The translations under genes and the position numbers were made by a program. From contig CAZWRG010000002.1 of NCBI GenBank assembly GCA_964636355.1, positions 32,746 to 96,745 on the forward strand: a stretch of DNA of 64,000 bases. Direction: 5' to 3'. Source of the stretch: an uncultured Candidatus Saccharibacteria bacterium. GTDB taxonomy: Bacteria > Patescibacteriota > Saccharimonadia > Saccharimonadales > JAGQNK01. The notes under the pieces were generated by a model. It ran no database searches. It had not been told where the DNA came from and worked only from the letters and a program-made list of their open reading frames with translations. Of this stretch, positions 38,530-55,392 are shown piece after piece (within the stretch, counting starts at the first letter, position 1; each line of letters begins with the position of its first letter).

Positions 38530-38802
38530 ATGTCTCCTGTATCAGGTGTGCCAGCTAGCTGCCAAGATAGATGTCCTCTGGAAGCCCTTCCCGAGAATCT
38601 GATCGTCGATTACCCATTTACAAAAAGATGTAATGGTCCGGTAATGGTAACGGATACGCCTGTTGATAATGAATTTGACATTGAAAATAGCGGCTACGTA
38701 GAAAGGGTTACACAGGATTCTAGAAAAATAGGAGCCAGAGCGTGTACGAACAATGGAGTTGCAATTTATTTAGATAAAATAGCGTCTGGAGAAGGAAAGT
38801 AA
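38530..38802 (+). CDS. 90-aa 4-Cys small protein inserted between rpsG and fusA
   Basis: ATG lies 3 nt after the rpsG stop. The stop overlaps the fusA start (TAATG). Cys residues at 11, 15, 34 and 72 (CQDRC...). Confidence 0.55.
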
Positions 38803-42324: not shown

Positions 42325-42567
42325 ATGCATCCCGGTGTTGTTTTCGAGCTTGAGCGGACAAAACAGCCAATCAAGGCAATTATTAGTCAAGCTCCGGAAG
42401 TTGTGGCAAATCAACACATTATGGTGCTAGTTGGGTTGATCCGGCTTAAACAGCTCAGGGCTGACAATTTTGTAGGCGCCGTAAGAATAAAATACGTCGA
42501 AAATCTTACGCATGATGAAATGAAGTATATCAATGACATGTCGCCACTTAATGACTCCGTTGAATAA
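42325..42567 (+). CDS. hypothetical 80-aa protein between tuf and rpsJ
   Basis: TAGAAT (42313-42318) lies 6 nt before the ATG, with no SD (leaderless geometry). No recognised motif. Confidence 0.4.
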   Translation: MHPGVVFELERTKQPIKAIISQAPEVVANQHIMVLVGLIRLKQLRADNFVGAVRIKYVENLTHDEMKYINDMSPLNDSVE

Positions 42568-42631: not shown

Positions 42632-42732
42632 CACTCCTGTAAATTAATCGTGGTGACTAAAAGTCGTCTGAATCGTTCTCTATAACGACCAGGAGATGTT
42701 ACACCACAAATTAGAAGATAGGAATTGGCAAA

Positions 42733-42756
42733 TGGAATTTAGAATTCTAAATTCCA
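42733..42756. repeat. 24-nt perfect palindrome in the rpsJ leader
   Basis: tggaatttagaattctaaattcca is its own reverse complement. Imperfect complementarity extends to ~42712-42780. Confidence 0.9.
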
Positions 42757-42798
42757 CAATCCATATTCCAAATTCTAGGACGACTGAAAGGAGTCAAG

Positions 42799-43152
42799 AT
42801 GGCAGAAGCAAAATCAACTAAGAAAGCTGAAGCTCCAGCAGCTAGCGGCAAGCAACGGATTAGAATCCGTCTAAAAGCTTATGATCACAAGGTCATTGAC
42901 CAATCCGCCAAGCAAATTATTGACACGGCGCTTAGAACCGGCGCTACGGTTGCCGGGCCAATTCCGCTGCCCACCAAGAAAACACTTTACACTGTCGTAA
43001 AAAGCCCTCACGTTTATAAAAAGGGTCGCGAACAGTTTGAAATGCGAGTTCACAAGCGCCTAATAGATGTTTTGGAGCCAACTCACAAGACAATCGATAG
43101 CTTGATGAATCTTAGCTTGCCAGCCGGATGCGATGCTGAAATCAAGATGTAG
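42799..43152 (+). CDS. rpsJ: 30S ribosomal protein S10 (N-terminally extended)
   Basis: [26 protein letters not shown]...GPIPLPT...[23 protein letters not shown]. Confidence 0.95.
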
Positions 43153-43172
43153 CCTACGATAAGCTCAAACTT

Positions 43173-43208
43173 AAAATCATCCATCCTTAACTGAATGGAT
43201 GATTTTTG
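43173..43208 (+). terminator. strong intrinsic terminator directly after rpsJ
   Basis: aaaatcatccat (43173-43184) pairs with atggatgatttt (43195-43206), 10-nt loop, T-run 43203-43207. Confidence 0.85.
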
Positions 43209-43225
43209 TTTAACATGTTATATTA

Positions 43226-43552
43226 ATGCTAATGGCTAAAAAACAAACATCTAAGCAAAAGAAAAAATCACCAGCTCGGCTGCGGCTAAGAAGCAGGGTT
43301 CGTAAAGAGCCACAAACTCCTGATGGGATTTATTTCTTAAAGCTGGTCATGTATCTAATTTTAGGCAGTTTATGGGTAAAAATTACTGATGGCAATACAG
43401 TTCAACTGCCAATACCAGTTGGGTTGTTGCTTGGTCTGGTATTTGCGGCTCATGATAAAGTTCAGCTCGATAAAAAAATCGGTTTTGCAATTCTACTGGT
43501 TGCCATGCTGGTCGGTTTTTGGGCCCCTTTTGGAATCTACATTGCTATTTAA
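43226..43552 (+). CDS. small membrane protein with Lys/Arg-rich N-terminus, inserted between rpsJ and rplC
   Basis: Three hydrophobic segments. An extended -10 TGtTATATT (43216-43224) lies 7 nt before the second ATG (43232), which may be the real, leaderless start. Confidence 0.55.
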   Translation: MLMAKKQTSKQKKKSPARLRLRSRVRKEPQTPDGIYFLKLVMYLILGSLWVKITDGNTVQLPIPVGLLLGLVFAAHDKVQLDKKIGFAILLVAMLVGFWAPFGIYIAI

Positions 43553-43575
43553 TCGAATGTAAAATAAACATCATA

Positions 43576-43605
43576 TTGACAGATGAGCTGGTTACATGCT
43601 AATCT
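43576..43605 (+). promoter_or_regulatory. candidate promoter for rplC and downstream S10-operon genes
   Basis: TTGACA (43576-43581), N18, TAATCT (43600-43605). Confidence 0.45.
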
Positions 43606-43630
43606 GTAACGGTCTATTAAATTTTCCAGA

Positions 43631-43705
43631 CTTGGTGAATGAGGTAGGTCTACAATTGTTCCACTATAGAACAGGGGTAGAAACCATCCATCACCAAGAA
43701 TTTTT
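43631..43705 (+). terminator. attenuator-like long-range stem plus T5 in the rplC leader
   Basis: cttggtga (43631-43638) pairs with tcaccaag (43691-43698), enclosing ~50 nt, followed by aattttt (T-run 43701-43705). Confidence 0.35.
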
Positions 43706-43749
43706 GTGTCATGGGACCAAAATTCTGGAGTAAAAAAGTAAAGGTTGCT

Positions 43750-44364: not shown

Positions 44365-44468
44365 TGTTTCGTTTCACTCAACATCAGTCTCCAGTCTCCA
44401 GTCTCCAGTCTCTTGCGACTAGTGACAGGCGACTAGCGACTAAAACCGACCAAGGGGAGGTTTTGTAA
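44364..44468 (+). other. rplC-rplD spacer module: heptamer tandem repeats, also a 34-codon ORF bounded by TAATG at both ends
   Basis: 4x CAGTCTC (44385-44412), then CGACTAG-type heptamers (44416-44443). The ATG at 44364 shares A with the rplC TAA. The TAA at 44466-44468 shares A with the rplD ATG. Translation: MFRFTQHQSPVSSLQSLATSDRRLATKTDQGEVL. Confidence 0.6.
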
Positions 44469-46307: not shown

Positions 46308-46319
46308 GGAGCATATAAG

Positions 46320-46592: not shown

Positions 46593-46594
46593 TA

Positions 46595-46699
46595 ATGGAA
46601 TTTAGAATATCGAATATGGAATTTAGAATGGGCTTCAATGAAGCTATTCCAACTTCTAACTTCCAGCATCTAACTTCTGCGACTGGAAGGAGCATCTAA
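46595..46699 (+). other. rpsS-rplV spacer module: GGAATTTAGAAT repeats and pyrimidine-rich arm, also a 34-codon ORF ending in TAATG
   Basis: ATGGAATTTAGAAT occurs at 46595-46608 and 46616-46629. Central hairpin gcttc-aat-gaagc lies at 46632-46644. The stop TAA (46697-46699) overlaps the rplV ATG. Translation: MEFRISNMEFRMGFNEAIPTSNFQHLTSATGRSI. Confidence 0.6.
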
Positions 46700-47091
46700 T
46701 GGCAGTTAAAGCAATTGCAAAAGGTGTTCGCATGAGCCCACGCAAAGTTGGTGTGGTTGCTGCATTGGTGCGCGGTAAATCAGTGGCTGACGCATTGACA
46801 ATTTTAGAGCACACTCCGCGACGGGCAGCTGAACCAGTTAAAAAGGTCATTGAGAGTGCTCGGGCTAACGCTGATCACAATCATAACTATAAGGCAGATT
46901 CCTTGGTGATCACCTCAATTAGCGTCACTCCGGGCGCTAGAATCAAGCGATATCGTCCAGCGGCTCATGGCCGAGCATTGCCTTTCATGCGCCGAACATC
47001 GCATATTTTTGTAGCGGTTGATGGCGAACAGCGTGCACCAAAGAAGCCAGCTTCTAAGAAGACCGAAGCCAAGAAAGAGGAGGCCAAGTAA
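46699..47091 (+). CDS. rplV: 50S ribosomal protein L22
   Basis: RMSPRKVGVVAALVRGKSVADALTILEHTP. Confidence 0.95.
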   Translation: MAVKAIAKGVRMSPRKVGVVAALVRGKSVADALTILEHTPRRAAEPVKKVIESARANADHNHNYKADSLVITSISVTPGARIKRYRPAAHGRALPFMRRTSHIFVAVDGEQRAPKKPASKKTEAKKEEAK

Positions 47092-47285
47092 TGGGTTTGT
47101 ATGGAAAAGAATTCTGGTCTGCTGAAATGGATGCAGCTTTGGTAAATGAAAAAGTTAACAGCGCATTTAGTCAGACTTTCAATAAGGATGACAGGGGAGA
47201 GCAGCCCGACAGTCTGGCTCTGCCAGCTGACGGCGCGCTGAGAGGGGATGTTCCCCTCTCAGGAACCGAACGGAGTGAGGTGTAG
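47091..47285 (+). CDS. 64-codon ORF inserted between rplV and rpsC (coding status uncertain; contains an 11-bp hairpin)
   Basis: The ATG overlaps the rplV stop (TAATG), and the stop lies 2 nt before the rpsC ATG. Perfect hairpin ctgagagggga-tgt-tcccctctcag at 47238-47262. Confidence 0.4.
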   Translation: MGLYGKEFWSAEMDAALVNEKVNSAFSQTFNKDDRGEQPDSLALPADGALRGDVPLSGTERSEV

Positions 47286-50819: not shown

Positions 50820-50911
50820 AGGAGTAGAAAGTAAAAAGTAGAAAGTTCATAAAGTAATAACTTTGAAACTTTTAACTTGATAACTTTATACTTTCGACTA
50901 AAGGAGAAAAG
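50820..50911 (+). repeat. rpsH-rplF spacer module: AAAGT-repeat arm / ACTTT-repeat arm imperfect hairpin, non-coding
   Basis: gtagaaagtaaaaagtagaaagttcataaagt ... aactttgaaacttttaacttgataactttatactttc. It ends cgactaaaggag before the ATG at 50912. No start codon and no open frame. Confidence 0.7.
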
Positions 50912-52927: not shown

Positions 52928-54433
52928 ATGAACTGGAAGATTATTTGGAAATCATTTAGCAATAGCGACATGCGCGGCCGTATTTTGGCTGTCCTGGGGA
53001 TGTTGCTGGTATTCAGAATTTTAGCTCATGTGCCTATTCCGCTAAGTGATCCGCAAACCCTAAGACAAGTTCTGGAAAACCTTTTTTCCTCGGCTGATAC
53101 GCCGCAGCTTCTGAGTTTTATTGATGTTTTATCTGGTGGAGCATTGGCTAATTTTTCAATTATGCTGGTTGGACTTGGTCCATACATTAATGCCAGTATT
53201 ATTATGCAACTGCTGACCAAAGCTATTCCGCAGCTTGAAAATCTTAATAAAGAGGGTGAATTTGGTCGGCGCAAAATCAATCAATACACTAGAATTCTAA
53301 CCTTGCCGCTAGCGATTATACAATCAGTCGGTGCCATTTACCTGGTGCGCCAATCGGCACTTCAGATCGGCGGAATTGGTGACATTACCGCTAATACATC
53401 AATTGCCCAGTGGGTGTTGATGGTCGCTTCGCTAACTGGTGGCGCCATGCTGCTGATGTGGCTGGGAGAACTAATAACCGAACAAAGCATCGGTAATGGA
53501 ATATCGCTGCTAATCACAGTTGGAATTGTCAGTACTCTGCCGGCGACAATCTCCAGTCTTTATTCGGCGGTTTTCAGTGGCGGCGAAACAAGTATCTTAG
53601 GATTCAAGTTCGGTTTTGACCGTGCTCAAGCGATTTATGCTGGGATAATTGTGGCGGTTACAGTTTTGATTACTGTATTGGTGGTTAAAATTAACGAGGC
53701 TTCGCGGCGATTGACCATTAACTACGCCAAACGAGTTCAGGGCAACCGAGCTTACGGCGGCGTGACAACTGTTCTGCCAATCAAATTAATAACCGCCGGT
53801 GTGATTCCGATAATTTTTGCGGTCGCCTTTTTGAGTGTGCCGGCTTTCGTCGGTCAAATATTGTCCGGCGCCGGTAGCGCCAGACTTCAGGAAATCGGCG
53901 CTAAGCTTACTATTTGGTTCCAAAATCCCAGCCCGCAGACCTTCATGCAAGAAGGATTCACGCCATATATTTACCCGCTGGTCTATTTCTTGTTAGTTTT
54001 TCTATTTACTTTCTTCTACACCAGCATCACTTTCAACAGCAAAGAAATAGCAGAGAACTTACAAAAACAAGGTGGATTTATTGAAAATGTTCGCTCCGGC
54101 GCGCAAACAGAGAAATACTTAAGCCGAATTGTGAACCGTTTAACACTATTCGGAGCTGTGGCTCTCGGACTACTAGCACTAGTGCCGATTATCGGCCAGG
54201 CTTTTCTTCAGACCAACATTGCGCTTGGTGGAACCAGTATTTTGATCTTGGTATCAGTAGCGCTTGAAACCTTACGAGCCGTTGAATCTCGAGCCTTAAT
54301 GGTAACTTATGATCAGTACGAACAGCCTGATTTCTTTTATGATACCTCTGTTCCAGCCGAAGCTGCCACTGGCGGACGACGACTAAAATTCCTGCCCAAA
54401 CGAAACAAAAAATCGACCACCGATAAAAAATAA
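52928..54433 (+). CDS. secY: preprotein translocase subunit SecY (C-terminally extended)
   Basis: 10-TM profile with GLGPYINASIIMQLL and LMWLGELITE. ~60 aa basic tail. Confidence 0.95.
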   Translation: MNWKIIWKSFSNSDMRGRILAVLGMLLVFRILAHVPIPLSDPQTLRQVLENLFSSADTPQLLSFIDVLSGGALANFSIMLVGLGPYINASIIMQLLTKAIPQLENLNKEGEFGRRKINQYTRILTLPLAIIQSVGAIYLVRQSALQIGGIGDITANTSIAQWVLMVASLTGGAMLLMWLGELITEQSIGNGISLLITVGIVSTLPATISSLYSAVFSGGETSILGFKFGFDRAQAIYAGIIVAVTVLITVLVVKINEASRRLTINYAKRVQGNRAYGGVTTVLPIKLITAGVIPIIFAVAFLSVPAFVGQILSGAGSARLQEIGAKLTIWFQNPSPQTFMQEGFTPYIYPLVYFLLVFLFTFFYTSITFNSKEIAENLQKQGGFIENVRSGAQTEKYLSRIVNRLTLFGAVALGLLALVPIIGQAFLQTNIALGGTSILILVSVALETLRAVESRALMVTYDQYEQPDFFYDTSVPAEAATGGRRLKFLPKRNKKSTTDKK

Positions 54434-54490
54434 TAAAACTCTTTACAAACTGTAGTCATATTTGCTATACTTCATTGACGTTATATCTGT

Positions 54491-54712
54491 ATGGCAAAAA
54501 ATAAGGAAGTAATCGAGTTAATGGGAGTAGTAAAAGAGGCCCTTCCAGGGACTCAGTTCCGTGTAGAGCTCGAAAACGGTCATCAGATTATAGCTCATGT
54601 TGCCGGTAAAATGCGAAAACACTACATTCGTTTGGTACCGGGCGACAGCGTTACGGTAGAATTGACACCTTACGATCTTACGAAGGGTCGGATAACGTAC
54701 CGCAAGTCCTAG
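54491..54712 (+). CDS. infA: translation initiation factor IF-1
   Basis: [52 protein letters not shown]. Confidence 0.97.
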
Positions 54713-54777
54713 TACTTTCTTACTAGTTTTATAAATTATAAGGGCAGTGAGTTATTGCGAAAGGAGCAATGATCCGC

Positions 54778-54894
54778 ATGAAAGTGCGTGCAAGTGTGAA
54801 AAAGATTAGCCCCGACGACAAAATTGTACGTCGTAAGGGTCGTCTTTACGTTATAAACAAATTTAAGCCCAAGCATAAGCAAAGGCAAGGATAA
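54778..54894 (+). CDS. rpmJ: 50S ribosomal protein L36, Cys-less (zinc-independent, YkgO-like) form
   Basis: Not in the ORF track (38 aa): [40 protein letters not shown] aaggag lies 11 nt upstream. The usual CxxC...CxxxH positions read S, D, N. Confidence 0.9.
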
Positions 54895-54898
54895 AATT

Positions 54899-55006
54899 AT
54901 GAATAATTTTATCAAGTTAAAAGTTAAAAGTGTAAAGGTAAAAGTAGCTCAACTTTCTACTTTCAACTTTCTACTTTCAACTCAAGTTACCGGAGGTAAC
55001 AAATAA
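54899..55006 (+). other. rpmJ-rpsM spacer module: purine-rich / pyrimidine-rich arms, also a 35-codon ORF ending in TAATG
   Basis: Arm aagttaaaagttaaaagtgtaaaggtaaaagtag faces arm aactttctactttcaactttctactttcaactcaagtt. ATG at 54899; the TAA at 55004-55006 overlaps the rpsM ATG. Translation: MNNFIKLKVKSVKVKVAQLSTFNFLLSTQVTGGNK. Confidence 0.6.
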
Positions 55007-55392
55007 TGGCGCGAATATCTGGAGTAACCATTCCGGACAATAAGCAAGTGCAAGTGGCGCTTACTTATGTTTATGGAATCGGCCCCAAGACCGCTGGTGA
55101 TATTTTGACACAAGCCAAAGTTGAGCCAACCGTAAGGACCAAAGAATTAACCGATGCCGAAATTTCACGCATCCAAGATGTTATCAACGAGACGCTAACT
55201 GTAGAAGGTGAACTTCAAAGAATTGTTAGTACTAACATCAAGCGTCTGAAAGACATTGGCAGCTACCGTGGTATGCGCCACAAAGCCAACTTGCCAAGTC
55301 GCGGACAGCGCACCCGAACTAACGGACGATCCCGCCGGGGTCGTAAGGTCGCCGTTGGTGGAGCACAACCTAAATCAGCATCTAAGACATAG
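55006..55392 (+). CDS. rpsM: 30S ribosomal protein S13
   Basis: MARISGVTIPDNKQVQVALTYVYGIG...GSYRGMRH. Confidence 0.97.
   Translation: MARISGVTIPDNKQVQVALTYVYGIGPKTAGDILTQAKVEPTVRTKELTDAEISRIQDVINETLTVEGELQRIVSTNIKRLKDIGSYRGMRHKANLPSRGQRTRTNGRSRRGRKVAVGGAQPKSASKT

Follow-up and report, generated by a model that had tools for sequence, protein, structure and literature searches.

The 111-nt spacer between rpmJ and rpsM in this genome is probably a multi-copy, possibly mobile palindromic repeat cassette that has been neutralised by a translational relay open reading frame (ORF). The family to which it belongs is best read as one that, in some Saccharimonadales, colonises stop-start junctions within the S10-spc-alpha operons for ribosomal proteins. 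The core of the cassette is an imperfect hairpin of ~70 nt, whose arms are tandem 7-nt units (four to five per arm in the window). Here, the window is the whole stretch of 64,000 nucleotides that was analysed; positions are counted from its first letter, and the features described below lie on its forward (+) strand.

Organization of the rpmJ-rpsM spacer

The window is a segment of a Saccharimonadales (Saccharibacteria/TM7, Patescibacteria) chromosome, and the best relatives of its S13 protein are all Saccharimonadales MAGs, with 81% identity among GTDB genomes and 88% among metagenomes. The genes are arranged in the order secY (52928-54433), infA (54491-54712), rpmJ (54778-54894), the spacer (54895-55005), rpsM (55006-55392), rpsK, rpsD and rpoA. 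rpmJ encodes L36 (38 aa), has an alternative in-frame ATG upstream at 54769 and ends in a stop codon at 54892-54894; the Pfam domain Ribosomal_L36 was detected in its counterpart in the related locus L081. The cistron downstream of the spacer, rpsM, encodes S13. The distance of 111 nt between L36 and S13 that was given in an earlier note on this DNA agrees with these coordinates, and the G+C content of the spacer is about 32%.

As had been noticed in the same note, the spacer reads as a 35-codon ORF (MNNFIKLKVKSVKVKVAQLSTFNFLLSTQVTGGNK; 54899-55006), which we refer to as the relay mini-ORF. Its ATG is located 4 nt past the rpmJ stop, and its TAA (55004-55006) overlaps the rpsM ATG, the overlap reading TAATG (55004-55008). 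The off-frame stops that had been listed at 54918, 54925 and 54945 are also present. The sequence AAGGA (54887-54891), in the 3' end of rpmJ, lies 7 nt ahead of the mini-ORF ATG, and this position at the end of rpmJ is that of the rpsM Shine-Dalgarno (SD) sequence in relatives with a tight junction. In the window, the rpsM SD (GGAGG, 54992-54996) is found inside the last codons of the mini-ORF, 9 nt before the rpsM ATG. The 3' module of the spacer, CTTTCAACTCAAGTTACCGGAGGTAACAAATAATG, has homologues in locus L024 (CTTTCAGCTCAAGCGACCGAAGGGAGCGCCTAATG) that are read in the same frame. No promoter-like or terminator-like site was found on the sense strand of the spacer.

The purine and pyrimidine arms described earlier were recovered as period-7 tandem arrays: about 4.6 units of AAGTTAA in the left arm (54914-54947) and about 4.9 units of TCAACTT/TCTACTT in the right arm (54949-54983), the latter being devoid of stop triplets in all frames. 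RNAfold predicted three hairpins in the spacer, with a minimum free energy of -29.7 kcal/mol (z = -4.76; 1 of 200 shuffles was as good), and the antisense strand was more stable still (z = -6.5). The main hairpin (54915-54982) is imperfect and has 25 bp in five helices, matching the hand count of about 25 bp in five short helices. It is preceded by hairpin 1 (54890-54913), a perfect stem of 10-11 bp (GAUAAAAUUAU/AUAAUUUUAUC), which encloses the rpmJ stop and the mini-ORF AUG (54899-54901) and whose pairing probability falls to 0.26 given longer upstream context. Hairpin 3 (54986-55000; GUUACC-GGA-GGUAAC) follows and holds the GGAGG SD of rpsM.

An AT-rich, repetitive sequence from a metagenome-derived genome might be attributed to chance low complexity or to misassembly, and the latter possibility had been raised at the outset. 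This explanation is effectively refuted. Locus L082, which derives from an independent sample (SRR7082966), is 100% identical to the window over 3,843 nt, element included, and therefore the spacer is not an assembly artefact. The strong fold z-scores, the enrichment of the motif and the family-wide ORF statistics with their negative control (see below) speak against this explanation as well.

The spacer in related genomes

Judged from comparison of related loci, what separates the two genes is an insertion, a hairpin-forming repeat, and not a conserved leader. The rpmJ-rpsM gap was below 55 nt in 153 of 167 Saccharimonadales relatives (median 2 nt) and at least 55 nt in 14; similarly, it was 0-8 nt in 71 of 79 GTDB relatives. 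L101, the closest genus-level relative (S13 88% identical), has 3 nt between the two genes and inserts at no junction. In 173 sequences, we found 86 inserts in normally tight ribosomal-protein junctions, a count which includes some orthologous and paralogous copies and overstates the number of independent events. The earlier note had made its reading depend on conservation of the frame or the hairpin in related genomes. With regard to sequence this expectation failed, most relatives being free of a spacer, whereas the architecture is found again wherever a tight junction holds an insert, with its start at the stop of the upstream gene, its period-7 hairpin, its own SD inside and its stop placed on the start of the downstream gene. 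In the searchable literature on intergenic repeats, MITEs and relay ORFs of Saccharibacteria and Patescibacteria, no prior description was found.

These observations bear on the idea of a lineage-specific alpha-operon leader, that is, an S4-binding autoregulatory structure before rpsM like the E. coli Alpha_RBS. Its position, directly upstream of rpsM-rpsK-rpsD, would be right, and a search of 901 nt gave a sub-threshold match to RF00140 at 54934-55038 (22.7 bits, E = 0.0067). However, these 22.7 bits fall short of the gathering threshold (38 bits), and what matches well is the conserved coding start of rpsM. Besides, the structure is lacking at 153 of 167 orthologous junctions, cassettes of the same kind occur at rplC-rplD, rpsS-rplV and rpsH-rplF, and an unrelated sequence takes its place in a strain of the same species. 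We regard such a leader as highly improbable.

Sibling cassettes and heptamer arms

Period-7 arrays were detected by TRF at five places in the window, every one of them in a ribosomal-protein operon. The rplC-rplD cassette (44365-44467) forms a hairpin of CAGTCTC x4 and GCGACTA x4 and has a 34-codon ORF with TAATG at both ends, and the rpsS-rplV cassette (46593-46698) is a period-7 hairpin of GAATTTA/TTCTAAC units with a 34-codon ORF ending in TAATG. The hairpin in the rpsJ leader (42696-42798) also has a period of 7 (GGAATTT/AATTCCA) and carries the shared 3' module ACGACTGAAAGGAG; its ORF (42696-42821) overruns the rpsJ start, out of frame. The rpsH-rplF cassette (50820-50911) has period-7 arms of the AAAGT type (AGTAGAA/ATAACTT) and no ORF, at a junction which normally has a spacer of ~20 nt with its own SD. 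The link to this spacer proposed in the earlier note is exact: the 12-mer ACTTTCTACTTT of the rpmJ-rpsM spacer is found as its reverse complement at 50835-50846. Seven matches to this 12-mer were counted at up to one mismatch, versus 0.44 expected, and apart from these two spacers no place in the window is rich in AAAGT/ACTTT. The window's remaining strong hairpins represent ordinary terminators.

Among the relatives (0.98 Mb), there were 39 arrays of period 7 versus 1 of period 8 and 4 of period 5, and period 7 was enriched also over periods 9 and 10. As many as 32 distinct canonical heptamers were found in 36 arrays, showing that the period is conserved and the unit is not. Heptamer-free cassette families occupy the same kind of junction; their peptides are like REKSSQSARIHFA.LRDEKNRKVCLIT or of a short MTKTF...SEGG type. 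Viral contigs were scanned for the 23-mer of the right arm, and no match was found.

Turnover between strains and junctions

The spacer belongs to a cassette family with multiple copies and with differences between strains, and it is not a locus-specific leader; its occurrence is patchy and strain-variable, with paralogous copies across junctions. For example, L081 and L174, which come from one sample, have flanks that are 98-98.5% identical to the window (98.4% over 7.6 kb for L081), and their rplC-rplD and rpsS-rplV cassettes are the same as those of the window bar 1-2 substitutions. At rpmJ-rpsM, both have a different cassette, with YAGTCNC units and a 36-codon ORF which also ends in TAATG. 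This cassette resembles the rplC-rplD copy of the window (77% global identity, 81% over a 117-nt BLAST match), and in L081 its peptide, MMSHIIQHQSLVTSLQSL..., is unrelated to the peptide of the window. A different cassette was likewise found at rpsH-rplF of L081 and L174, with GGAATNN units and an ORF, and it is present in L173 too; the window, L081, L082, L173 and L174 represent one species. Similarly, paralogs that sit at different junctions within a single genome share 87-91% identity (L043, L024 and L150), and the nearest relative of an element was located at another junction in 52 cases versus the same junction in 33. The cassettes may have spread by transposition or, instead, by recombination or gene conversion between junctions.

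L024 has seven junction copies and one copy outside coupled junctions. The left arm of its rpmJ-rpsM copy contains TCAGTTA units, and the peptide there reads YSVISYQ, as PMC4679880 predicts. A TTCAAAA unit is present in L043. Two complete genomes, CP064992.1 and CP064993.1 (loci L086 and L088), carry cassettes as well. ORF-less period-7 hairpins outside coupled junctions were observed in L137, after an L33-like ORF and flanking a terminator, and in L024, at a gene 3' end.

Open frame and relay geometry

Ribosomal-protein junctions were annotated in all fetched loci, and open frames were compared with interior dinucleotide shuffles in which start and stop were kept. The statistics are modest for the mini-ORF alone (4% of shuffles keep the frame; p = 0.04) and overwhelmingly beyond chance at the family level. 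In the first set, 44 of 53 inserts had a bridging ORF versus 10.1 +/- 2.6 expected from shuffles, and the 5,328 nt of these ORFs contained no stop in frame 0, 141 in frame +1 and 101 in frame +2. Over all 173 sequences, a bridging ORF was found in 71 of the 86 inserts, including 14 of 14 at rpmJ-rpsM. In contrast, the control set of natively long spacers (L15-secY, secY-infA and infA-rpmJ; 55-300 nt) had such an ORF in 2 of 194 cases. Eleven of the 15 ORF-less inserts were at rpsH-rplF; these exceptions fit the relay model, being mostly at a junction with a native SD-bearing spacer of ~20 nt.

The geometry of the ORFs is also in line with a relay. Among 68 unique ORF-bearing inserts, the start was located at -3 to +5 from the upstream stop in 63 and was ATG in 65, a stop-start overlap was present in 43 (TAATG in 31 and ATGA in 12), and an SD-like tetramer was found inside the 3' end of the ORF in all 68. 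As 7 and 3 have no common factor, all three reading phases occur along a heptamer array. For the four arms of the window with a stop in the consensus unit, a perfect array would contain one frame-0 stop, at 54932, 44427, 46610 and 46664, respectively. The real sequence deviates from the consensus at exactly these positions, with off-frame stops left intact; in the mini-ORF, it is the would-be in-frame TAA at 54932 that is removed. The frame is evidently held open by selection.

We propose that the insert was built, or has since been moulded, as a translational relay, from which tolerance of the insert would follow. Ribosomes leaving rpmJ would re-initiate at the AUG 4 nt downstream by means of the SD-like AAGGA in the rpmJ end, translate 35 codons right through the hairpin and thereby melt it. 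They would then cross the GGAGG set within the last codons of the ORF and terminate at the UAA that overlaps the rpsM AUG (UAAUG), where translation would restart. Such a relay through the mini-ORF would keep the expression of rpmJ and rpsM coupled and stoichiometric despite 111 extra bases. From this arrangement we infer that the mini-ORF is probably translated and that coupling would occur via termination-reinitiation.

The selected open frame and good translation signals (AAGGA 7 nt before the ATG) would also be expected if the mini-ORF were a true small-protein gene with an independently functional 35-aa product, and paralogous copies of one genome do encode similar peptides, e.g., MLRFTTHQSKVQSPKLK... 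in L024. However, the peptide at the same junction of a same-species strain, MMSHIIQHQSLVTSLQSL..., is unrelated, peptides are wholly different between cassette families, and they are low-complexity translations of nucleotide repeats. The exact 35-aa product is not on record, and the peptide is too short for the homology search of the protein database, in which a 42-aa representative of the cassette family had no homologue. A small-protein gene is very unlikely.

RNA structure and origin of the hairpin

The hairpin could instead be the selected feature, with the ORF as a mere side condition: a host-selected cis-acting RNA serving as a processing site for RNase III or another enzyme, as a stability barrier, or as a brake that tunes the ratio between the ribosomal proteins encoded upstream and downstream. 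This explanation is consistent with the strongly non-random fold (z of -4.8 for the sense and -6.5 for the antisense strand), with the persistence of the hairpin architecture across 32 different heptamers and with the presence of period-7 hairpins where coupling is unneeded (L137 and L024). Also, Correia and ERIC elements are known targets of RNase III/E (PMC10969869). On the other hand, the hairpin is missing in most relatives, including the nearest genus-level one, and a different cassette takes its place in a 98.4%-identical strain. At the gathering threshold, neither the window nor nine cassette-rich loci gave any Rfam family. A covariation check, as suggested in the earlier note, gave double changes in 0 of 32 pairs of the main hairpin among the six L024 paralogs; this comparison, without compensatory changes, is uninformative, and thus there is no sign of selection on the RNA hairpin itself.

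The two strands also differ in their folding. The sense strand folded worse than the antisense strand in 39 inserts versus 14 with the reverse (n = 53, p = 8e-5), and the 53 inserts had 137 G.U pairs on the sense strand versus 239 on the antisense strand. This asymmetry speaks against a selected mRNA structure, and strand composition may explain it instead. The excess of A on the sense strand is equal in inserts and genes (AT skew +0.12 vs +0.13), so a neutral explanation for the asymmetry is available. The idea that the sense-strand A.C mismatches result from stop avoidance was rejected: C-to-T changes at those positions would create an in-frame stop in 10% of cases, which is also the value for all C's.

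We also considered an unfolding switch in which AUG and SD are hidden in hairpins throughout the family. No sequestration was found family-wide, the pairing probability being 0.56 for the mini-ORF AUG (0.54 in shuffles) and 0.54 for the SD region (0.54 in shuffles); the downstream AUG was slightly more open than in shuffles (0.45 vs 0.53, p = 0.016). Since pairing of AUG and SD is at the level of shuffles, the switch is unsupported and only the reinitiation geometry is supported. Taken together, the strand asymmetry, the lack of compensatory changes, the lack of sequestration and the ORF-less hairpins outside coupled junctions favour a DNA-level or selfish origin of the hairpin, with the relay ORF as an accommodation, and make a selected mRNA structure less likely. 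Overall, a host-selected cis-acting RNA seems to us unlikely.

Comparison with known elements

As genomic objects, the cassettes are closest to Rickettsia palindromic elements (RPEs), to MITE/REP-like elements and to the heptamer repeats found at start codons, and they miss defining features of each. Like the RPEs (PMC10969869), which are palindromes of ~100-150 bp, they are multi-copy and fall into several families with a characteristic peptide per family, and copies in translated sequence persist only if they are frame-compatible. Unlike the RPEs, which are in-frame fusions inside host proteins, each cassette is a mini-cistron in its own right that has a start, an SD and a stop and fits exactly between two genes; the cassettes also belong to another phylum and have arms of tandem heptamers.

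The resemblance to MITE/REP-like palindromes such as Correia, ERIC and REP/BIME (PMC10969869, PMC3333891) lies in the short, non-autonomous, hairpin-forming and multi-copy nature of the elements, in differences of presence and absence between strains and in frequent co-transcription within operons. Multiple copies and presence/absence polymorphism, by which MITEs are recognised, were both observed: there are five copies in the window and none in L101, and L081 departs from the window at 2 of 4 sites. Clear terminal inverted repeats were not found, the complementarity being in the internal heptamer arms and the ends (ATG... and ...GGAG..TAATG) not being inverted copies of each other. Nor was there an unambiguous target-site duplication at the cassettes. 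TAATG flanks the rplC-rplD and rpsS-rplV copies, and a direct repeat, ACTAAAGGAG, flanks the rpsH-rplF copy, where the right-hand repeat coincides with the family's own 3' module (CGACTRAAAGGAG). No linked transposase was present in the 64 kb of this genome. In contrast to MITE/REP-like palindromes, the cassettes are AT-rich, have period-7 arms and a relay ORF, and are enriched at translationally coupled junctions. REP/BIME elements in particular are G+C-rich palindromes of 20-40 nt with a conserved 5' tetranucleotide and an associated RAYT, whereas the element described here is ~70-110 nt long with about 32% G+C and period-7 arms.

Heptanucleotide repeats beside start codons have been described as TAACTGA in Beggiatoaceae, cyanobacteria and Bacteroidetes (PMC4679880) and as TTTTGAA/TTCAAAA in Nostoc (10.1101/2022.06.06.494920), and frame constraints were already noted there. 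Like the cassettes, these are period-7 arrays directly upstream of start codons, including those of ribosomal-protein operons, and a mobile or translational role has been suspected for them. They are, however, direct arrays of one heptamer, with TAACTGA stopping all frames, whereas the cassettes are inverted paired arrays which form a hairpin, use 32 heptamers and are stop-free in one frame. Kinship to the TAACTGA, TTTTGAA or STRR units was rejected: the 32 heptamers gave one exact match to a known unit versus about 0.14 expected, which is not significant.

With regard to the relay, the closest parallel is the synthetic bicistronic design (Mutalik et al. 2013), in which the leader ORF contains RBS2 and has a stop codon overlapping the start of the target, and the helicase activity of the ribosome is used (PMC6302717). 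Natural coupling by stop-start overlap has been reviewed (PMC12548453). The cassette shares with both a short leader ORF that has the downstream SD in its own 3' end and its stop on the downstream start (TAATG), and it may be likened to the bicistronic design also in that the helicase activity of the translating ribosome neutralises local structure there. Unlike that design, the cassette is natural, is putatively translated and would be fed by re-initiation from the upstream cistron and not by a strong RBS of its own, and its relay lies within a repeat and wraps a hairpin of ~25 bp. Another comparison is with mgtQ, a small ORF between mgtC and mgtB in Salmonella, which is a single conserved regulated locus and works by translation abortion (PMC8092293). 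Both are short ORFs in an intra-operon spacer, and the cassette might be compared to mgtQ in that translation of the latter governs the downstream cistron through local stem-loops. The cassettes, unlike mgtQ, are variable repeats with geometric coupling at both ends.

Implications

A bolder reading, which we offer tentatively as possible rather than probable, is that these elements represent an undescribed class of "coupling-neutral" cassettes that are specific to the stop-start junctions of essential coupled operons and are swapped or copied on strain-level timescales, with a dedicated heptamer machinery that is maybe common to the cyanobacterial and Beggiatoaceae repeats. Under this reading, a cassette equipped with a relay of its own (start, stop-free frame, internal SD and overlapping stop) would make insertion nearly free for the host, and a strict 7-nt period without sequence conservation (32 heptamers) would suggest dedicated machinery that generates or recognises the repeats.

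The cassettes provide fresh and tractable data for the old puzzle of heptanucleotide repeats beside bacterial start codons, and, for annotation, a sequence-only criterion for spotting translated "non-genes". They also represent a hypervariable marker within the ribosomal-protein block that is widely used for Patescibacteria phylogenomics and strain typing, where the inserts could disturb alignment or assembly. If the relay reading is true, the cassettes would be the natural equivalent of what engineers have devised as the bicistronic design, and an essential, tightly coupled operon would tolerate repeated insertions by means of a translated bridge that is carried by the insert or quickly acquired.

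Inserts at ribosomal-protein gene junctions and beyond

In strain L174, which belongs to the same species as the window and matches it at 98-98.5% identity in the flanks, the rplB-rpsS junction carried a 274-nt insertion (L174 2022-2295), where the equivalent spacer of the window (46308-46319) is 12 nt. We found that this insertion encodes an 89-aa orphan ORF, which starts 5 nt past the rplB stop and ends as TAATG on rpsS. Thus, the relay rule, by which an insert is bridged by an ORF running from the upstream stop to the downstream start, is obeyed by a larger insert as well.

Besides, a second cassette family, built of three hairpins and lacking heptamer units, was observed in several genomes, where it occupies many different junctions (L023 1160-1265; L025 9423-9533 and 9975-10086; L091 1490-1593; L104 682-803 and 1423-1537; L105 7451-7562). 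An ORF bridged the cassette in every case, with a peptide approximating xxREKSSQSARIHFA.LRDEKNRKVCLITxKGAK, and an Rfam search with these cassettes gave no match. Heptamer hairpins themselves were also found elsewhere: in the relative L137 (19458-19669), an ordinary terminator hairpin is flanked by period-7 arms of TAGTAGA and complementary CTACTA units, between convergent genes and downstream of an L33-like ORF. Thus, heptamer hairpins are not limited to coupled junctions.

Certain junctions could be mistaken for insert-bearing ones. At L018-S5 type junctions, for example in L049-L057 (Nanosynbacter), L021 and L023, the seeming 70-140-nt "spacers" upstream of rpsE are Arg/Gly-rich N-terminal extensions of S5, read through in frame.

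Strand asymmetry of insert folding

For the 53 inserts analysed, mean folding was 4 kcal/mol better on the antisense than on the mRNA strand, because A.C mismatches of the sense strand turn into G.U pairs on the antisense strand. Stop avoidance does not account for this asymmetry; strand composition might explain it.

Operon layout, orphan ORFs and L36 in the window

The S10 operon appears to be split between rpsJ and rplC. The intervening region (43153-43710) contains a hairpin with a T-run that resembles a terminator (43176-43205), a 108-aa orphan ORF (43226-43552) with no match in a Pfam search, and a TTGACA-containing stretch. A 64-aa orphan ORF between rplV and rpsC (47091-47285), joined on its upstream side by an ATGA overlap and separated from rpsC by 2 nt, was also called in L174 and had no Pfam match. 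In the str/tuf region, neither the 90-aa orphan ORF between rpsG and fusA (38530-38802) nor the 80-aa one between tuf and rpsJ (42325-42567) had a significant Pfam match.

Further downstream, infA directly follows secY (gap 54434-54490), with neither adk nor map between them and with a promoter-like site (TTTACA-18-TATACT, with TG; 54442-54471) upstream of infA. L36, encoded by rpmJ (54778-54894), has no zinc-binding cysteines and shows KKISPDDK...VINKF in place of C..C...C..H. Since the assembly collection lists the identical 38-aa sequence for 1,415 blocks, Cys-less L36 is widespread in this group.
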